From an uncultured Verrucomicrobiae bacterium (GTDB lineage Bacteria > Verrucomicrobiota > Verrucomicrobiia > Chthoniobacterales > JAFAMB01), in contig CAWEXO010000013.1 of NCBI GenBank assembly GCA_963813025.1, forward strand, positions 544,001-608,000: a stretch of DNA of 64,000 bases, read 5' to 3'. Position 1 is the stretch's first letter. Every line of letters starts with the position of its first letter. The position numbers and the translations under genes were made by a program. The notes beneath the pieces are model-generated. The model was not told where the DNA came from. It saw only the letters and a list, made by a program, of their open reading frames with translations, and did no database searches. Positions 4,787-64,000 of this stretch are shown in pieces.

Positions 4787-5029
4787 ATTCTCACTGCTTT
4801 TCTTGTTGATTGTTTCTTAGCTACTGGTTCAACGATTGACGGAATGGCCCGTTCCGCGATCGGTCGACGAACCACCGAAACGCCGCCTACAAGGCGGCGG
4901 CTGGGCATCCGTGTGATGCGCCGGGTTCGAGTCTCATATTCCGGCCGGATGTATTCCGCGGCAGTTCGCTCAAACGGAGAAGAAGGTCAACACTGACACT
5001 GGCACTGAGACTGGCACTCGCCCCGTCCC

Positions 5030-29170: not shown

Positions 29171-29220
29171 GGGGGAGTTCAGGGAAGTTCGGGGAAGTTC
29201 AAGGAAGTTCAGGGAAGTTC
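29171..29220 (+). repeat. Solo tandem array of the 10-mer RGGAAGTTCR (5 units)
   Basis: gggggagttc agggaagttc ggggaagttc aaggaagttc agggaagttc; same unit as the arrays at 62791-62882 and 63331-63409. Confidence 0.9.
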
Positions 29221-29227
29221 CTCCCCT

Positions 29228-29809
29228 ATGTCCGCCGTGCACCTCGCGCTTCTGCGCGCAATTAACCTTGGTCCAATCAACAAAATCTCGATGCCGGATC
29301 TGATCAAAGTTTTTGCTGAAACCGGCTGTCACAATGTTCGGAGTTACATTCAGAGCGGAAATATCATCTTCGAAGCGAGCTCTGAACTCGTTGGCGAAGT
29401 CTCGAAAAGAGTTGCGACAAGAATTCACGACCGGTTTGGATTTCGTGCGCCGGTAATTTTGCGGACCCTGCCCGACATCAAAAAAGTCGTTCGCATCAAC
29501 CCTTTCCTGGAAGAAAAGGCGCCGGCGGACAAACTGCATGTGCTCTTCCTGGCGGATCTCCCGAAAGCGTCCGCCGTTCAGAGCCTGGATCCAAATCGAT
29601 CGCCGCCTAATCGTTTCGCCGCGCGAGGAAAGGAAGTCTATTTGCTTTTCCCGGAAGGTTTTGCCCGGAACAAGCTGACGAATTCCTATTTTGATGCAAA
29701 GCTCGGCATTCAAGGCACGATCAGGACTTGGAGCACCGTCCTCAAGCTGCTTGAAATGATGGAGAAAGCGGAGTCGGGGGAGGGGCGACGGAGGAGACTT
29801 GCGTCTTAG
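29228..29809 (+). CDS. DUF1697 family protein (possible in-frame upstream start at 29162)
   Basis: ALLRAINLG, YIQSGNIIF, TIRTWSTV. Confidence 0.88.
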   Translation: MSAVHLALLRAINLGPINKISMPDLIKVFAETGCHNVRSYIQSGNIIFEASSELVGEVSKRVATRIHDRFGFRAPVILRTLPDIKKVVRINPFLEEKAPADKLHVLFLADLPKASAVQSLDPNRSPPNRFAARGKEVYLLFPEGFARNKLTNSYFDAKLGIQGTIRTWSTVLKLLEMMEKAESGEGRRRRLAS

Positions 29810-29851
29810 CAGATCCCTTGACTCCTTAAACCCCTCCTCCAGTCTATTGCC

Positions 29852-54872: not shown

Positions 54873-56280
54873 GAGCTATAACCGAATTTTGTGGATGAGG
54901 AGATAAAGAAAGGCGCATCCTTTCAGTGAGAAAAAGAAACACGGCAGCCTCACTCGAGGACGCCAAAAAGAAAGGATGCACCAATGCCAGAGAATAAAGT
55001 GGTCTCGCTTGATGAGCGAGCAAAAGATGAAGAGAAGCCCTTCCTGGAACAGTTACTGCAGGAAGGGGCCAGGAAGCTGTTACAGGCGGCAATCGAGAAT
55101 GAGGTGATCGACTATATCCAATTCCACAAAGATCAGCGGGATGAGAATGGGCAGCGGCTGGTGGTACGCAATGGACATCTGCCGGAGCGGGAGGTGGTCA
55201 GTGGAGTGGGTCCGATCCGGGTTCGTCAGCCACGGATCCGGCATCGCGACCAAGGTCGATTTTCCAGCGCGATTCTGCCCAAGTATATGCGTCGGGCTCC
55301 CAGCGTCGATGCTTTGATTCCAGCCCTTTACCTCAAAGGGATCTCAACCGGAGATTTCAGCGAAGCGTTGACAGCGATTTTGGGCGAAGGAGCCAGTGGG
55401 CTTTCAGCCACCAACATCGTCAGACTCAAGAGCAGTTGGGAAGCCGATTACAAGGCATGGACTCAGCGTGACTTGAGGCAGAAGCGTTACGTTTATTGGT
55501 GGGCCGACGGCGTCTATTTCAACGTCCGACTCGACGAAGAGCGAACCTGCGTGCTGGTCTTGATCGGAGCCACCGAGGATGGCACCAAAGAACTCTTAGC
55601 TGTTGTCGACGGTTATCGCGAAAGCACCCAATCCTGGCGTGAACTGCTTGGGCAGCTCAAACGCCTAGGCCTGTCCGCCGCGCCGAAGTTGGCCATCGGT
55701 GACGGTTCGCTCGGCTTCTGGATCGCTCTGCAGGAAGAATATGGCCCGATCGCCCAGCAACGTTGTTGGGTGCATAAGACAGCCAACATCCTGGATAAAA
55801 TGCCCAAGAGTGTGCAAGGTAAAGCTAAGCAACTCATCCATGAAATGTACCTGGCGCCGACCCGCAAAGCAGCTCTGGCGGCCTACGATCAGTTCATCTC
55901 CAGTTACCAAATCAAGTTCCCAAAAGCCTGCGAATGCTTGGACAAAGATAAAGAAGTCCTGTTTACCTTTTACGACTTCCCAGCCCAACATTGGCCGCAT
56001 TTACGGACCACCAACCCCATCGAATCCACCTTTGCTACCGTCCGATTACGAACTCACCGAACAAAGGGTTGCGGTTCACGAATCGCGACACTGACAATGG
56101 TCTTTAAACTCGGTCTGGAAGCCCAAAAGCATTGGCGCCGGCTTCAGGGCTTCGAACTGATCCCAAAGGTAGTTACTGGTGTCCGGTTCGTCGATGGCGA
56201 AGAACAAACCCAACAGGCCGCTTAATCGATCATTTCAAAGGATGCGCCCGTTCCCAATACACAACTTTTGACAATATCTC
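54873..56280 (+). mobile_element. IS256-family element, transposase 54984-56225
   Basis: VRNG, LYLKGISTGD, WADG, IGDG, QRCWVHK, RTTNPIES; imperfect terminal IRs GAGCTATAACCGAATTTTGTG / CACAACTTTTGACAATATCTC. Confidence 0.93.
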
Positions 56281-57248: not shown

Positions 57249-58391
57249 TCAGAACGTCACACGCGCTGCCATAGCCTGGCTGTGCTCATCGCGGAGGTGA
57301 CCATAGGTTCGCATCGCCAGGGAACCGCCATCCGAATGACCAAGCCAGCGCGATACGATGGGAATGTCCACCCCGGATTCAATACAACGGGTGGCGAACA
57401 GGTGACGAAGGTCGTGATGCGTAAAGCGGGCGATCCCCAGTCTGGCGCATGCCCGGTCAATGGCTTTCTGGCATTCAGTGACTGCAAGCACGTATCCGGC
57501 CTTTCTCCGGGCCGCAGAACGCGGGTAACGCGGCGTCTGGCGCAGGTCGATAAGCAGCTTTGCCAAAGGCTCGATAATCGGAATCCAGCGAGTCTTGCCG
57601 CTCTTGGTGGAGTTAAGGGGATCGCCACAGATTTTGATTCGGGCACCGTTTTCGTCTACATGATCCCAGAGCACGCACCGCGCCTCATCGACTCGACAGC
57701 CGGTGTAAGATAAGAACTCAACCAAGTCTGCCGAACACTGACTGACCGCGCCCTCGGCGCTGCGGATTTCTTTAACGAGTGCCGCGAACTGAGTGCCAGT
57801 AGGTATCCGCATCGTCTTCTGCTTGGGCGTAATCTTGCCGATGACGTTCGCCGGATTGTCTAGAATAGCGCCGTGTTCAACGCCAACATCCAAGATGTGC
57901 CGAAGGGTGTCGACAGTGTTATTGAATCGGCCGGCTGAAATGGTTTTCTGTGCTCCGTCGGTCTTCCACCCATGGCCATTGGCCCGCTTTGAATTTAAGA
58001 AGACCTTGGCCCACTCCCGGCATTGAGATTGGCTGATCGCTGAAATTCTTGTGTCAGCTAATCCGGGCCATGAACGAAACAAAGTTTTGATCGTCTGGAA
58101 CCGATAATCCTTGCTCGATTGTTTGATCTCACTATCAGTTTCGACCTTGGCCCGGTAGAGTTCAGCGGCTTGGCCTAGCGTCGGTTTTCCAGACAGAAGG
58201 GCGTCGGATATGTTGCGGGTCTTGTTGATCTCTTGGAGGACCTTCGGCGCTTGGGCGCGGGCTATCTCGAAGGAAGTTGTCTTAAGAGCTTTCCACATCT
58301 CGCTGCCTTGCCGGAAGCCACGCACATAGTACCTTCCGGAATCACGATGGCGATAGAGATGCTGAACTTTGGTTTGAATCCATGTGGCCGT
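57249..58391 (-). CDS. Tyrosine recombinase/integrase (first canonical start 58325; open frame extends upstream)
   Basis: TGCRVDEA, TKSG, HDLRH, LGH, RTY catalytic set; adjacent to the tRNA. Confidence 0.93.
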   Translation of the reverse strand, partial: TATWIQTKVQHLYRHRDSGRYYVRGFRQGSEMWKALKTTSFEIARAQAPKVLQEINKTRNISDALLSGKPTLGQAAELYRAKVETDSEIKQSSKDYRFQTIKTLFRSWPGLADTRISAISQSQCREWAKVFLNSKRANGHGWKTDGAQKTISAGRFNNTVDTLRHILDVGVEHGAILDNPANVIGKITPKQKTMRIPTGTQFAALVKEIRSAEGAVSQCSADLVEFLSYTGCRVDEARCVLWDHVDENGARIKICGDPLNSTKSGKTRWIPIIEPLAKLLIDLRQTPRYPRSAARRKAGYVLAVTECQKAIDRACARLGIARFTHHDLRHLFATRCIESGVDIPIVSRWLGHSDGGSLAMRTYGHLRDEHSQAMAARVTF

Positions 58392-58434: not shown

Positions 58435-58511
58435 GCGCTCTTAGCTCAGGTGGATAGAGCAAGGGATTTCTAATCCCTAGGTCACAGGTTCGAGTCCTGT
58501 AGAGCGCACCA
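58435..58511 (+). tRNA. tRNA-Arg(TCT) with encoded CCA
   Basis: Cloverleaf: acceptor GCGCTCT/AGAGCGC, D stem GCTC/GAGC, anticodon stem AGGGA/TCCCT with loop TTTCTAA, T arm ACAGG-TTCGAGT-CCTGT, ACCA end. Confidence 0.96.
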
Positions 58512-59043: not shown

Positions 59044-60171
59044 TAGTACTTAGTTGCTTTAGTTCTTTATATTTATGAAAAATTATGATTTGTTGGATGG
59101 ATGGCAACGGGTCGCATCAAACTTTCTGTGGAAAAGCGCAAGCTCTTGGAGGGTTGGAGTCGAGCGCAACGGGTCGAACACCGGCTCAAGGTCAGGAGTC
59201 AGATTATCTTGAAGGCGGCAGCGGGCTTGAGTGGACGTGCGATTGCCAAGAGCCTGCGCATTCCCGAGGTGACGGTGAGTAAATGGCGGCGGCGCTTTGT
59301 GCGCCAAGGCCTGGCTGGCTTGGAAGACGCGCCACGCAGTGGAAAGCCGGCCAAGTATGATCAAATGACGGTCAAGCGGGTCTTGGCGCTGCTGGATGAA
59401 GATCCACCGGCGGGCTACGGGCGCTGGAATGGGCGACTGCTGGCGCAGAGTCTGGCCGATGTTTCCTCCGATCAAGTCTGGCGCATTTTGCGCCAACAAG
59501 GCATTGAATTGGAACGGCGCCGCAGCTGGTGCATTTCCACCGATCCGGAGTTTGTGCGCAAGGCCGCTGACATTGTCGGTCTTTATCTCAATCCGCCCCA
59601 GAATGCGCTCATCTTGGCCATTGATGAAAAACCAGCCATTCAAGCCCTGGAAAGAGCCCAAGGTTGGATTCGCTTGCCCAATGGCAGGGCGCTGACGGGT
59701 TTTAGCCACGAGTACAAGCGCCATGGCACCTCCACTCTCTTTGCCGCCCTCAACATTGCCAGCGGCCAAGTGCAGGCTGGTCATTACCGGCGCCAGCGCC
59801 GACGGGAATTCCTGGAGTTTATGAACCAGGTAGTTGCCGGAAATCTCGACAAAGAAATTCATGTGGTCTTAGACAACCTTGCGACCCATAAGCCAAAGCA
59901 AGATCGCTGGTTGAAGGCTCACCCCAATGTGCATTTTCATTTCACTCCAACCCACGCTTCTTGGCTCAACCAGATTGAGATCTGGTTTAGTATCTTGAGC
60001 CGCCAAGCCCTCCAGGGGGCAAACTTCACCAGCGTGGCAGAGCTGCGCAACGCCATCGACACCTTCATCAAGAACTACAATAACAATGCGGCTCCCTTCG
60101 AATGGACCAAATCCCAGGTACATCAGGGGAAAGTCGCCATACATATAACTAACTTACGCAATTAGGCACTA
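59044..60171 (+). mobile_element. IS630-family element, transposase 59101-60165
   Basis: DEK, HEYKRHGT, DNLATHK, TPTHASWLNQIE; IRs CTAGTACTTAGTTGCTTTAGTT / AACTTACGCAATTAGGCACTAG with CTAG at both junctions. Confidence 0.93.
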
Positions 60172-61055: not shown

Positions 61056-61181
61056 ATGTTCGTACCTGACTTCAAGCGCAATTGCATCGGTCACATGCCG
61101 GCTACGGCGTGGTGTGACCGGATTGCGCTTCGCGATCTGTCCATCACCCGAAGTGGTGGGTTCGCTAAAAAGTCCAGATAA
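61056..61181 (+). promoter_or_regulatory. Candidate leader peptide (41 aa) overlapping an antiterminator strand
   Basis: MFVPDFKRNCIGHMPATAWCDRIALRDLSITRSGGFAKKSR*; 61153-61166 is complementary to 61199-61212. Confidence 0.5.
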
Positions 61182-61201
61182 ACGAATCAAGATTTTAAAG
61201 C

Positions 61202-61240
61202 AAACCCACCGCTGAGCAACGGCGGTGGGTTTTTTATTTT
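61202..61240 (+). terminator. Rho-independent terminator (attenuator-type position)
   Basis: AAACCCACCGCTG-AGCAA-CGGCGGTGGGTTT followed by TTTATTTT. Confidence 0.85.
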
Positions 61241-61273: not shown

Positions 61274-61435
61274 ATGAACAATAACCAAGACATCGAGCTG
61301 AACCTGGAGCAACAGATGGCTGCTCTCGCCCAATTGTATCTTGAGTTGGCTCTGCCCTTGTCGGCAGCTGTTGAGGCTGCCCTGGCCGACCTGCAGGACC
61401 TTGACGCCGAATTTCTGGTCGCGGAAGCTGCCTAG
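61274..61435 (+). CDS. Small acidic helical protein (53 aa); missing from the ORF track
   Basis: MNNNQDIELNLEQQMAALAQLYLELALPLSAAVEAALADLQDLDAEFLVAEAA; GGAGA RBS; stop overlaps the GTG of the next gene. Confidence 0.6.
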   Translation: MNNNQDIELNLEQQMAALAQLYLELALPLSAAVEAALADLQDLDAEFLVAEAA

Positions 61436-62784
61436 TGGCTCTACCGGCAAACCTGGTGCGCGCAACATCGTGGCAAACCGCTACTTCCCTGGTCCGAAGA
61501 TTGCAGGGCAACGGTTTTGTCGCCTTTTTTGCGGGGGGCAGCGTGCGGGACGCCTTGCGTGGGATGCCCTCGAAAGACATCGACATCGCGACCAGCGCAA
61601 CTCCGGCGGACGTCCAGAGGTTGTTTCGGAAGACGGTCCCGGTTGGAGTTCAATTTGGGGTGGTCCGCGTGCTGGAAGCGGGATGCGAGTTTGAGGTAGC
61701 CACGTTTCGATCCGATGGACGGTATATCGATGGGCGCCATCCGCAGTCAGTACGGTTTTCCTCGCCGGAAGAGGATGCGCAGCGGCGTGACTTCACGATC
61801 AACGGGATGTTCTATGACCCGATCGCGGAATCAGTGTTGGACTTCGTCGGAGGTCAGGCAGACATCGAGCGCCGCCTGATTCGAGCCATTGGTGAGCCCG
61901 CGCACCGGTTCCGGGAAGATCGTCTTCGCCTGCTCCGGGCCGTCCGGTTTGCTGCGACGCTTGGCTTTTCGGTCGAGCCGCTTACCTGGAAAGCACTTCA
62001 ATCGCAAGCAGCCGAAATCGGGCAAGTAAGTCTGGAACGGATTCGCGATGAGCTCATGAAAATTCTATCCCATCCAGCACGTCTACGCGGACTCGATCTG
62101 CTGGATGCGAGCGGATTGCTCGCAATTGTCTTGCCCGAAGTCTTTTCCTTGAAAGGTGTGGAACAGCCCGCGGAATTTCATCCCGAGGGAGACGTTTATG
62201 TTCATACCAGGAAAATGTTAGAGTCTTTGGAGCCAGATTCGCCGCCGTTGCTTGTCCTTTCCGTCTTGCTTCACGATATTGGTAAGCGACCAACCCAGAC
62301 GTTTGATCCGCAGGAGAACCGGATTCGCTTCAATGGCCACGATCGGGTGGGAGCGGAGATGACGGAACGAGTGCTAACCCGGCTGCGCTTCTCGCGGGCC
62401 GAGATCGATGCAGTGGTCGAAGCGGTCCGCAATCACATGGTTTTCAAAGATGTCCAGCGGATGCGGCCGGCGCGTCTGCGCCGCTTTATGGCCCGGGAGA
62501 CTTTCCCGCTGGAGATCGAGTTACACCGAATTGATTGCGAGAGCAGCCACGGTAGCATCGACAATTACCATTTCCTCAAAGACAAGGCCGCCGAGTTCTC
62601 GGCAGAACCTTTGATCCCGCCGCGGCTTCTGAGTGGCAGGGATCTGATCGCGCTCGGATTGAAGCCCGGACCACTGTTCGGGAAAATTCTTGAGGCGGTT
62701 GAGACGGCGCAATTGGAGAATGAGATCGGCACGAAGGAAGAAGCGCTCCAGTTCGTGCGGAGATTGATCGGAGAGGGGAGCTGA
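61435..62784 (+). CDS. cca: CCA-adding tRNA nucleotidyltransferase / poly(A) polymerase family protein with HD domain
   Basis: GGSVRD, DIDIAT, RRDFTING, EDRLRLLRAVRF, HT...LLHDIGK. Confidence 0.88.
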   Translation: MALPANLVRATSWQTATSLVRRLQGNGFVAFFAGGSVRDALRGMPSKDIDIATSATPADVQRLFRKTVPVGVQFGVVRVLEAGCEFEVATFRSDGRYIDGRHPQSVRFSSPEEDAQRRDFTINGMFYDPIAESVLDFVGGQADIERRLIRAIGEPAHRFREDRLRLLRAVRFAATLGFSVEPLTWKALQSQAAEIGQVSLERIRDELMKILSHPARLRGLDLLDASGLLAIVLPEVFSLKGVEQPAEFHPEGDVYVHTRKMLESLEPDSPPLLVLSVLLHDIGKRPTQTFDPQENRIRFNGHDRVGAEMTERVLTRLRFSRAEIDAVVEAVRNHMVFKDVQRMRPARLRRFMARETFPLEIELHRIDCESSHGSIDNYHFLKDKAAEFSAEPLIPPRLLSGRDLIALGLKPGPLFGKILEAVETAQLENEIGTKEEALQFVRRLIGEGS

Positions 62785-62790
62785 AGCTCA

Positions 62791-62882
62791 AGGAAGTTCG
62801 AGGAAGTTCGAGGAAGTTCAAGGAAGTTCAGGGAAGTTCAGGGAAGTTCGGGGAAGAAGGAAGTTCAAGGAAGTTCAGGGAA
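62791..62882 (+). repeat. Left tandem array of RGGAAGTTCR (~9 units)
   Basis: aggaagttcg x2, aggaagttca x2, gggaagttca, gggaagttcg, a partial unit, aggaagttca x2. Confidence 0.95.
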
Positions 62883-62948
62883 TTGTCCGGGTTTGGTTCT
62901 TGCGAAAATCGGCTTGATCACAATAAAGAAACGTTCTATTTCAATGTT

Positions 62949-63335
62949 ATGAAATCCGCAAAAACGTTTCGAGACTTGGTGGTCTGGCAGAGAGCACATC
63001 AATATGTCCTGCAGTTATATAAATTTACTGAGTTATTCCCGAAATATGAGCAGTTCTGCTTGACCTCCCAGATGAGGAGGGCCGCTATTTCCATTCCAGC
63101 CAATATCGCCGAAGGGTTCAAAAAACGGAGTCGCGCGGACAAAACTCGCTATCTGAATATCGCACAAGGGTCACTGGAAGAATCACGATACTATCTCATT
63201 CTAAGCAACGACCTAGGATACGGTGTTGTGTCTTTACTGGAGGCAGAACTAGAGCATGTTTCACGCCTTTTAATTCGGTACGCAAATGCAATTGCAAAGA
63301 ATCAAAATGATCCGCGCGAGGTTTCCCTTCCCTGA
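62949..63335 (+). CDS. Four helix bundle protein (23S rRNA IVP / TIGR02436-like)
   Basis: FRDLVVWQRA, FPKYEQF.LTSQMRRAAISIPANIAEG, IAQGSLEE, DLGY. Confidence 0.93.
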   Translation: MKSAKTFRDLVVWQRAHQYVLQLYKFTELFPKYEQFCLTSQMRRAAISIPANIAEGFKKRSRADKTRYLNIAQGSLEESRYYLILSNDLGYGVVSLLEAELEHVSRLLIRYANAIAKNQNDPREVSLP

Positions 63336-63409
63336 ACTTCCCTGAACTTCCCTGAACTTCCCTGAACTTCCCTGAACTTCCCCGAACTTCCTTGAACTTC
63401 CCTGAACTT
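63331..63409 (-). repeat. Right tandem array, inverted relative to the left array (8 units of CCTGAACTTC)
   Basis: cctgaacttc x5, cccgaacttc, cttgaacttc, cctgaactt. Confidence 0.95.
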
Positions 63410-63414
63410 GCATC

Positions 63415-64000
63415 GTGCGTCCCGCGACCCGTGTGCTCAAGGCAGGCTTGGCGGCCCCGGAAGCTGGGGAACCTTTCCTCGCCGGTCCGACTTTTGCCGC
63501 TCCGTTCCATACGCCGGGCGACCCAGCCGATTCACCGTATAGCTACGGAAGGTTGGGCAATCCGACCTGGGTGCGCTTGGAAGCGGCGATCGGATCGCTG
63601 GAGGGTGGGGAAGCCTGTGTGTTCAGCTCGGGAATGGCCGCCGTTTCTGCCACCCTCGGCTGTTTGATAAGACCGCATATGAGCGTGGTCTTACCCTCCG
63701 ACGGCTACTACGCGGTTCGACAGCTCGCCCGAGCCATGGAAGAAAAAATGCACGTACAGCTTCGCACCGCCACTTCCCAGAATGACCTTTTCGGGTTGAT
63801 CGAAGGTGCGGGCATACTCTGGTTGGAAACGCCAACCAATCCACAGCTTGAGGTCTATGACATAACAGTTCTCGCTGCGGAGGCGCACCGTTGTGGAGCT
63901 TTGGTCATCGTCGATAACACCACAGCCACGTGCCTCGGGCAGCAACCGCTGGAGCTTGGGGCCGACGTTTCACTGGCGAGCGGAACCAAAGGCCTCACTG
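63415..64000 (+). CDS. Cys/Met metabolism PLP-dependent enzyme (cystathionine gamma-lyase/synthase family), runs off the window
   Basis: Manual translation: MRPATRVLKAG...YGRLGNPTW..LE, FSSGMAA, LETPTNP, VDNT, SGTK (PLP lysine). Confidence 0.9.
   Translation, partial: MRPATRVLKAGLAAPEAGEPFLAGPTFAAPFHTPGDPADSPYSYGRLGNPTWVRLEAAIGSLEGGEACVFSSGMAAVSATLGCLIRPHMSVVLPSDGYYAVRQLARAMEEKMHVQLRTATSQNDLFGLIEGAGILWLETPTNPQLEVYDITVLAAEAHRCGALVIVDNTTATCLGQQPLELGADVSLASGTKGLT

Follow-up and report, generated by a model that had tools for sequence, protein, structure and literature searches.

A likely mobile element family with facing tandem-repeat arms around a four-helix-bundle gene, present in a Verrucomicrobiae genome and in other bacteria

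The stretch of DNA considered here, termed the window, comprises 64,000 nucleotides of contig CAWEXO010000013.1 from an uncultured Verrucomicrobiae bacterium. It carries an element that consists of a four-helix-bundle gene of the TIGR02436/PF05635 family enclosed by two facing arrays, or arms, of a 10-bp tandem repeat. Several described systems resemble it in part. REPIN-RAYT systems are composed of extragenic inverted hairpin doublets and a partner gene per repeat group that is flanked by its repeat; they are chromosomal, and several systems can be found in one genome (PMC3116915; bioRxiv 10.1101/2022.05.22.493013; both in part). The intervening sequences (IVSs) of 23S rRNA that bear open reading frames (ORFs) in Coxiella and Leptospira have in common with the window element the protein family, a terminal stem (here predicted), heptamers ahead of the ORF, a lower GC content and a sporadic distribution; in Coxiella the IVS ORF is preceded by heptamer repeats, and a mobile-element origin is listed among the hypotheses (PMC4990558, in part). 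The heptameric repeats of Xanthomonas and Nostoc are likewise intergenic and near stop codons, with about four units and convergent inverted pairs. In Xanthomonas campestris, GGGAATC arrays form 70 convergent pairs of unknown function, and polymerase slippage is cited as a hypothesis for the heptamer excess (PMC4692102, in part). Supplement 2 of the same paper places a GGGAATC array 6 nt past bccP and across the start of XCC0516, uncommented in the part available.

The element differs from each of these systems. As in REPIN-RAYT, the inverted doublets are extragenic, and every group of them is associated with a gene that has the same repeat on its flanks. However, the arms are tandem non-palindromic 6-10-mers and not palindromic REP (repetitive extragenic palindromic) sequences, the partner is a helical bundle of 120-130 amino acids and not a Y1/HUH transposase (PF05635 only in Pfam), and the Y1 genes and REP-like hairpins that this genome does possess are distinct from the element and nested inside arrays. 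Unlike the 23S IVSs, the window element is situated between a cca-family gene and a lyase gene and not in an rRNA gene, and none of 213 homologous loci is within 600 nt of a 23S rRNA gene, rRNA often being unassembled in metagenome-assembled genomes. The Xanthomonas and Nostoc heptamers are described without a partner gene and as unassociated with mobile elements (PMC4692102, in part). Avd of diversity-generating retroelements (DGRs) has its fold in common with the window protein, but the element gene has no reverse transcriptase (RT) match beside it and its product scores below the Avd cut-off. Miniature inverted-repeat transposable elements (MITEs) of insertion sequences (IS) are also gene-less, internally deleted copies with inverted ends, whereas the present element has no DDE transposase, no fixed-length terminal repeat and no target duplication at the inspected junctions. 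By their defining features the element is not an IVS, a REPIN-RAYT system, a DGR or an IS/MITE. The parts are already known; the system as a whole is likely undescribed.

The layout of the locus is given in Table 1. A first-pass annotation of this DNA had reported inverted 10-bp arrays around an AT-richer TIGR02436/PF05635 gene, and this is confirmed by Tandem Repeats Finder (TRF), exact matches, profiles and base composition. The motif RGGAAGTTCR has eight exact matches in the left arm and seven in the right, and 20 in the window versus 0.79 expected, a count reached by none of the shuffles; GC content is 45.5% in the ORF versus 57.9% and 60.8% in the neighbour genes. The geometry stands as it was described: 6 nt separate the end of the cca stop (62784) from the first exact left unit (from 62791); the ORF closes with TGA within the first right unit; and the lyase start is a GTG 5 nt past the right array. 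The proposed stem also appears in the predicted RNA fold of the sense strand (62760-63430), where the arms are paired at -265 kcal/mol (z = -10.8 versus 20 shuffles). Scans found no promoter or terminator consensus in 62700-63500, and all four Rfam matches are below the gathering score. An assembly artefact is an unlikely source of the layout because a finished Nostoc punctiforme plasmid carries the same layout.

Table 1. Positions of the element, its host genes and a related array in the window
Feature	Positions	Strand	Evidence
CCA-adding tRNA nucleotidyltransferase family gene (cca; upstream host gene)	61435..62784	+	NCBIfam PRK13299 E 9e-76 (below cut-off); Pfam PolyA_pol, HD
Left arm, ~10 units GGAAGTTCRR, purine-rich strand first	62783..62882	+	TRF period 10, 10.3 copies; 8 exact matches
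AT-rich spacer ahead of ATG	62883..62948	+	Sequence; sigma-70 promoter scan, 0 sites
Four-helix-bundle gene, 128 aa, TIGR02436/PF05635	62949..63335	+	Profiles, AlphaFold model, Foldseek
Right arm, ~8 units, reverse complement of left arm	63327..63409	-	TRF 8.3 copies; 7 exact matches
Cys/Met pyridoxal-phosphate-dependent lyase, cystathionine gamma-lyase-like (downstream host gene)	63415..64000, continues beyond window	+	PRK07582 E 1e-69 (partial protein); Pfam PF01053
Dispersed array, same decamer family	29172..29220	+	TRF 4.9 copies; sequence

The window protein matches TIGR02436 at 111.9 bits (cut-off 24) and PF05635 at 115.9 bits (cut-off 33.8). Its AlphaFold model displays four helices (pLDDT 87.8), and the best Foldseek matches are 2GSC (Xcc0516) and 2RLD (BT_0352), followed by the DGR entries 8UB7 and 4DWL (Avd). 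The Avd folds are matched at a TM-score of about 0.73-0.77 and 12-14% identity, and the Avd model NF033474 at 31.7 bits, with a cut-off of 80. The solved structure of the homologue Xcc0516 is a pentameric ring (PMC4990558, in part); by analogy, the window protein may also form a homopentameric ring. Six polar residues (Q41, R44, S48, N52, E55 and E78) are near-invariant, a pattern suggestive of a site for binding or catalysis. Purifying selection acts on the ORF: dN/dS is 0.03-0.15 or saturated in 10 of 11 pairs and 0.48 in one pseudogene pair. In two phylum samples the family is present in 107/151 and 129/251 genomes.

Flanking arrays are a general property of these genes. Loci were taken from the 80 closest GTDB relatives, the top PF05635 matches of two phylum samples plus five genomes, and the genomes of this window (G000) and of a sister species (G001), 221 in all (fetched homologous loci carry L-numbers); 198, from many phyla, remained after one without a match, seven duplicates and 15 with short flanks or ORFs were dropped. 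The strict test consisted of one 6-mer tandemly repeated upstream and, reverse-complemented, downstream. It was passed by 139/198 loci, as compared with 5/1000 random windows and 183/2000 mismatched flank pairs, and a looser test by 156; in an earlier subset, inverted arrays were seen in 1/164 shifted windows. On inspection by eye, degenerate arms are seen at many of the failing loci. Because its background is 15%, a transition-tolerant array caller was not used for prevalence. The unit is 7 nt long in 101/139 loci, the upstream arm is purine-rich in 127/132, in 187/198 the ORF has a lower GC content than the flanking DNA, and 99/137 cassettes follow a co-oriented open frame at a median of 10 nt.

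The repeat unit also covaries with the protein, as the first-pass annotation had proposed to check together with the flanks of homologues. Unit sharing climbs from 1-3% at less than 50% protein identity to 50% at 60-70%, 70% at 70-80% and 92% at 80-90%. When 80 clade loci are removed, the nearest neighbour has the same unit in 27/92 cases (permutation mean 2.6, maximum 12). The clade of the window protein has an SH-aLRT of 99 in a quick tree (106 columns, 45/109 inner branches open), of which only this clade was used. Its units are heptamers resembling CAGRAKT, from which units of 8, 9 and 10 nt derive in this bacterial family. CAG[AGT]A[GT] is found at least twice on both sides in 58/74 clade loci versus 3/114 others, and those three fall in the clade. 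Eight hand-picked loci of eight phylum-level groups (Cyanobacteria, Nitrospirota, Acidobacteria, Chloroflexi, delta proteobacteria, Verrucomicrobia, Peptococcaceae and Pirellulales) have the same unit, at a median synonymous divergence (pS) of 0.9, which is saturated. We infer from these comparisons that the protein recognizes its unit in a sequence-specific manner, since inheritance alone would not keep a 7-mer so far and units drift between sister species.

The window locus belongs to a system of several families that extends across the genome. A scan of G000 for tandem arrays of period 5-14 paired within 2 kb gave 99 inverted versus 31 direct pairs; the gap is 50-200 nt in 58/99 of the former and 4/31 of the latter, and the majority of array pairs enclose no gene. 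The decamer core forms about 30 clusters. There are 10 PF05635 matches, seven above cut-off, and tandem arrays adjoin all 10, with units that differ between them (CAGTGY, GGAAGTTCRR, CGAGTCC, CGTTTCR, GGAGTTCRR, AAATGCCAC, GAGCGGNGG, GGAGCTA and others); one fragment with a left arm only and one cassette with a short left arm are the exceptions. Inverted pairs with a gap of at most 800 nt number 86. The unit family of 71 of these also flanks a PF05635 gene or its remnant in G000, that of five has its cassette in G001, and 10 are unassigned. With families assigned by motifs that the analyst chose, polarity is the same as in the cassette in 74/76 assigned pairs. The short pairs are intergenic in 66/71 cases, at a median of 9 nt from the nearest stop, and 33 of these 66 are between convergent or divergent genes. 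Two short elements hold ORF pieces and are therefore internal deletions; other interiors are mostly unique sequence or REP-like hairpins. IS630- and IS256-like pieces and a DUF1697 gene are also found between arms, and one G000 cassette is antisense to its flanking frames.

The DUF1697 gene (29228-29809) concerns an array near 29171 that had been called solo. The array is real, but it is not strictly solo: a degenerate opposite arm is present at ~29815-29840, past the DUF1697 gene. This gene is absent from the site in G001, and it is possible that a host gene was carried or lost between the arms (29172-29840). The window also holds arrays of further unit families of this system, at 4990, 17032, 30838, 33486 and 58956 (ACACTG, CGTTTCA, GTCCCG-type, CCGCTCCCA and GATGACC). 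REP-like hairpins are nested within many array pairs of G000, and a Y1 transposase gene with GTAG-type palindromes is located at G000:C5:183900-186200 (L325), where G001 has CAGTGY arms.

Comparisons between genomes show the element present at some sites and absent at their orthologues. In G001, whose cca-family protein is 91% identical to that of the window, the cca-lyase junction contains 201 nt of unrelated repeats versus 634 nt in G000, and the window cassette is absent, an outcome in favor of the first-pass annotation, which had proposed a check for such empty junctions in relatives. At 28 more distant cca loci, neither the lyase nor a four-helix-bundle gene was seen near cca. Two G001 cassettes are missing at orthologous G000 sites; at a third site, related arms enclose the gene in G001 and a REP-like interior in G000. 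A 267-nt decamer element in G000 is opposite a 2-nt gap in G001 (partial view of the alignment), with no seed repeat. In another genome (G010), two 86%-identical cassettes at unrelated sites align from outer arm edge to outer arm edge only, and at one site in three congeneric genomes of one genus the ORFs are 65-69% identical, the flanks of the aligned pair being 86-89% identical. No target duplication is evident by eye at inspected junctions. Arms of one family are often retained at orthologous sites while interiors differ. Cassettes occupy sporadic sites next to unrelated genes and are frequently pseudogenes, with up to 23 paralogues per genome whose units differ where sampled. The family was found on 35/72,556 plasmid records, and none was confirmed in a viral scan.

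Dispersed arrays resemble the cassette resident in the same genome. Two families occur around the genes of G000 and G001 as different variants, and in each genome the dispersed copies match the resident variant. The densities of the G000 variants are 14.9 versus 1.7 and 7.0 versus 0.8 sites/Mb (G000 versus G001) and those of the G001 variants 2.3 versus 12.5 and 1.6 versus 8.3, the G001 sample being 1.2 of 4.2 Mb with four of 60 stretches picked because they hold known arrays or cassettes. The same difference as between the resident variants is seen in the arms at several orthologous sites. The decamer dimer has 71 matches in G000, 12 in G001 and 0 in 39 other relatives. Among 150 genomes of the phylum, at least four matches of the clade heptamer pattern are found in 6/10 with a clade gene versus 9/140 without; both thresholds were set after the data were seen, the cassette's own arms are included, and kin are not independent.

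These elements are probably a mobile family, with facing tandem-repeat arms around a four-helix-bundle gene, of which the window holds a gene-bearing copy. The protein is predicted to recognize its own repeat unit and would likely promote the copying of arm-bounded DNA to other intergenic sites, where many copies are gene-less; an autonomous element would thereby serve non-autonomous copies, with an Avd-like ring as specificity factor. It is quite likely that several units of the arms, paired or single-stranded, are bound by a pentameric ring. That such binding drives spread in trans is a step to which we lean with less assurance. The element may spread as a DNA hairpin unit that inserts without duplicating its target, either just past stop codons or into arrays already present. 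It is doubtful that the six near-invariant polar residues themselves cut and join strands; a recruited host enzyme might supply this activity instead. Slippage would alter the unit number, and deletion and REP insertion the interior. The idea in the first-pass annotation of a minimal arm-bounded unit without a transposase, whose protein is tied to the repeat, is supported. Two candidate partners were rejected. RT is not obligate, as many PF05635 genomes have no RT match, and GxxExxY is not an in-genome catalytic partner, as G000 holds merely two fragments.

A number of observations weigh against mobility promoted by the protein. PF05635 is the sole Pfam match of the window protein, and no known catalytic family was found in profile or Foldseek searches. 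Protein remnants are present in just 2/76 gene-less interiors, and 35/42 inner-spacer comparisons are not interpretable as cassette remnants. No genome was seen to carry near-identical cassettes at two sites; the closest pair is that of 86%, and movement is therefore rare or old. The presence/absence pairs are unpolarized, and some 'empty' sites may therefore be deletions; one of them retains a single unit. Arrays also occur where no cognate gene was detected: G001 (79% complete) retains decamer arrays with no gene of the window clade found, another genome (G180) has 90 heptamer matches and no PF05635 match, and the nine genomes above that reach four matches have no clade gene, while 3/10 genomes with a clade gene have zero matches. 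The looser array test is failed by 42/198 loci, all loci being best-scoring matches and not a random sample, and in a few Acidobacteria loci just one arm is present. For the XCC0516 array no inverted partner arm is given (PMC4692102, in part).

A different, rather unlikely explanation is that the protein is a domesticated regulator that binds the repeat in its own mRNA and at transcript ends genome-wide; host slippage, template switching and gene conversion would spread and homogenize the arrays, and the cassette would move passively by array recombination. Coupling of unit and protein and purifying selection are accounted for equally well in this manner. The location of arrays just past stop codons and of cassettes behind co-oriented frames is consistent with it, as are the retention of arms of one family at orthologous sites with differing interiors and the chromosomal location indicated by the plasmid and viral scans. 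On the other hand, the many paralogues with differing units, the sporadic sites and the frequent pseudogenes suit selfish elements better, the cassette neighbours are unrelated genes, and the clean 267-nt versus 2-nt site has no seed repeat.

Retro-mobility of an Avd-like type is improbable. Here the ring would bind the repeat stem in a transcript and recruit an RT in trans, and the cDNA would integrate at cognate arrays. The Avd chains of DGRs are indeed the next-closest folds after 2GSC and 2RLD, cassettes are co-oriented with host transcription, G000 encodes an RT, and RT was found in 44/106 genomes with PF05635 versus 9/44 without (p = 0.015, with no correction for kinship or genome size). 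But 62/106 PF05635 genomes have no RT match, including all five of one genus with 8-23 copies each. Across 213 loci there was no match to RT (one G000 query) or to Y1 (two G000 queries). The Avd model score is far below its cut-off, and the arms show no RNA-strand bias (G-U versus A-C, p 0.44-0.47 in a crude test of wobble pairs).

The first-pass annotation had favored an mRNA event, in which an intervening sequence is excised at its stem by RNase III and the stem brings a Shine-Dalgarno-like GGGGAG at the cca end to the lyase start. The predicted stem is very stable, and the Coxiella IVS, which RNase III cuts, contains heptamer repeats and encodes a member of this protein family (PMC4990558, in part). 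This is nevertheless a very improbable purpose of the element. The borrowed Shine-Dalgarno sequence falls away in the sister species, where GGGGAG is missing from the cca end and the lyase starts with ATG; the repeats at that junction are unrelated, no locus is by 23S, and most array pairs are gene-less. The arms show no strand bias, half of the intergenic short pairs are between convergent or divergent genes and therefore have no downstream start that a stem could couple, one cassette is antisense to its flanking frames, and dispersed copies and movement are left unexplained. One read joint that skips the gene (29 letters on the short side, contigs only) was not used as evidence; it is best read as another repeat-family member because its loose ends match the interior of another element. 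RNase III may well cut a long mRNA stem as a side effect. That the gene is a neutral passenger caught between ordinary simple-sequence repeats, as the other DNA found between arms might suggest, is the least probable account and is largely refuted by the covariation, by the excess of inverted arrays over shifted and random windows, and by a lineage-specific unit retained despite saturated synonymous divergence.

In a wider and tentative view, TIGR02436 proteins would be the mobility factors of unrecognized, widespread selfish elements with tandem-repeat arms, possibly with a new strand-transfer chemistry on an Avd-like pentamer of programmable repeat specificity. The gene-less copies would be the heptameric repeats of Xanthomonas, cyanobacteria and others, Avd a domesticated relative, and the GxxExxY nucleases a parallel class with 8-9-nt arms. 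The ORF-bearing 23S IVSs would be copies that landed in 23S rRNA, which is likely when taken by itself. The cyanobacterial STRR repeats presumably group with the heptameric repeats. A large family of unknown function gains a testable role, and there is a candidate cause for the bacterial excess of 7-base tandem repeats, unexplained in the available part of PMC4692102. For assays of binding and of mobility, the lineage-specific units already provide cognate and non-cognate partners. Should the protein move DNA by itself, it would rank as a very small mobility factor with no relation to known transposases; should it do no more than bind, it would represent a natural family of repeat-reading proteins. 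The system also bears on the origin of ORF-bearing rRNA IVSs and of Avd. No account of the gene-array link was found in the literature searched (TIGR02436, PF05635 and GxxExxY included), mostly without subscription papers, and Leptospira IVS papers may mention repeats; the available parts of PMC10053308, PMC3733652 and PMC4060949 hold nothing on it.

Two further groups of loci are of interest. Acidobacteria loci L102, L124, L142, L144, L146 and L147 have a right arm only, followed by a conserved ~40 nt, with a conserved divergent gene start ahead; they possibly represent a fixed, domesticated copy. Genes of the GxxExxY family (PF13366, PDDEXK_3; L357-L386) pass the strict array test in 13/30 cases, and more do so by eye, with units mostly of 8-9 nt; the tandem-arm design may therefore be common to this unrelated nuclease-fold family.

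Upstream of the element, an attenuator-like hairpin with a T run (61141-61238) gives a weak His-leader match (E 0.0065, below gathering score) and precedes a short ORF that ends at the cca start. The window also contains a Mutator-family transposase (54984-56225), a tyrosine integrase (57249-58325, minus strand) that adjoins tRNA-Arg (58435-58511), and a DDE_3 transposase (59101-60165).

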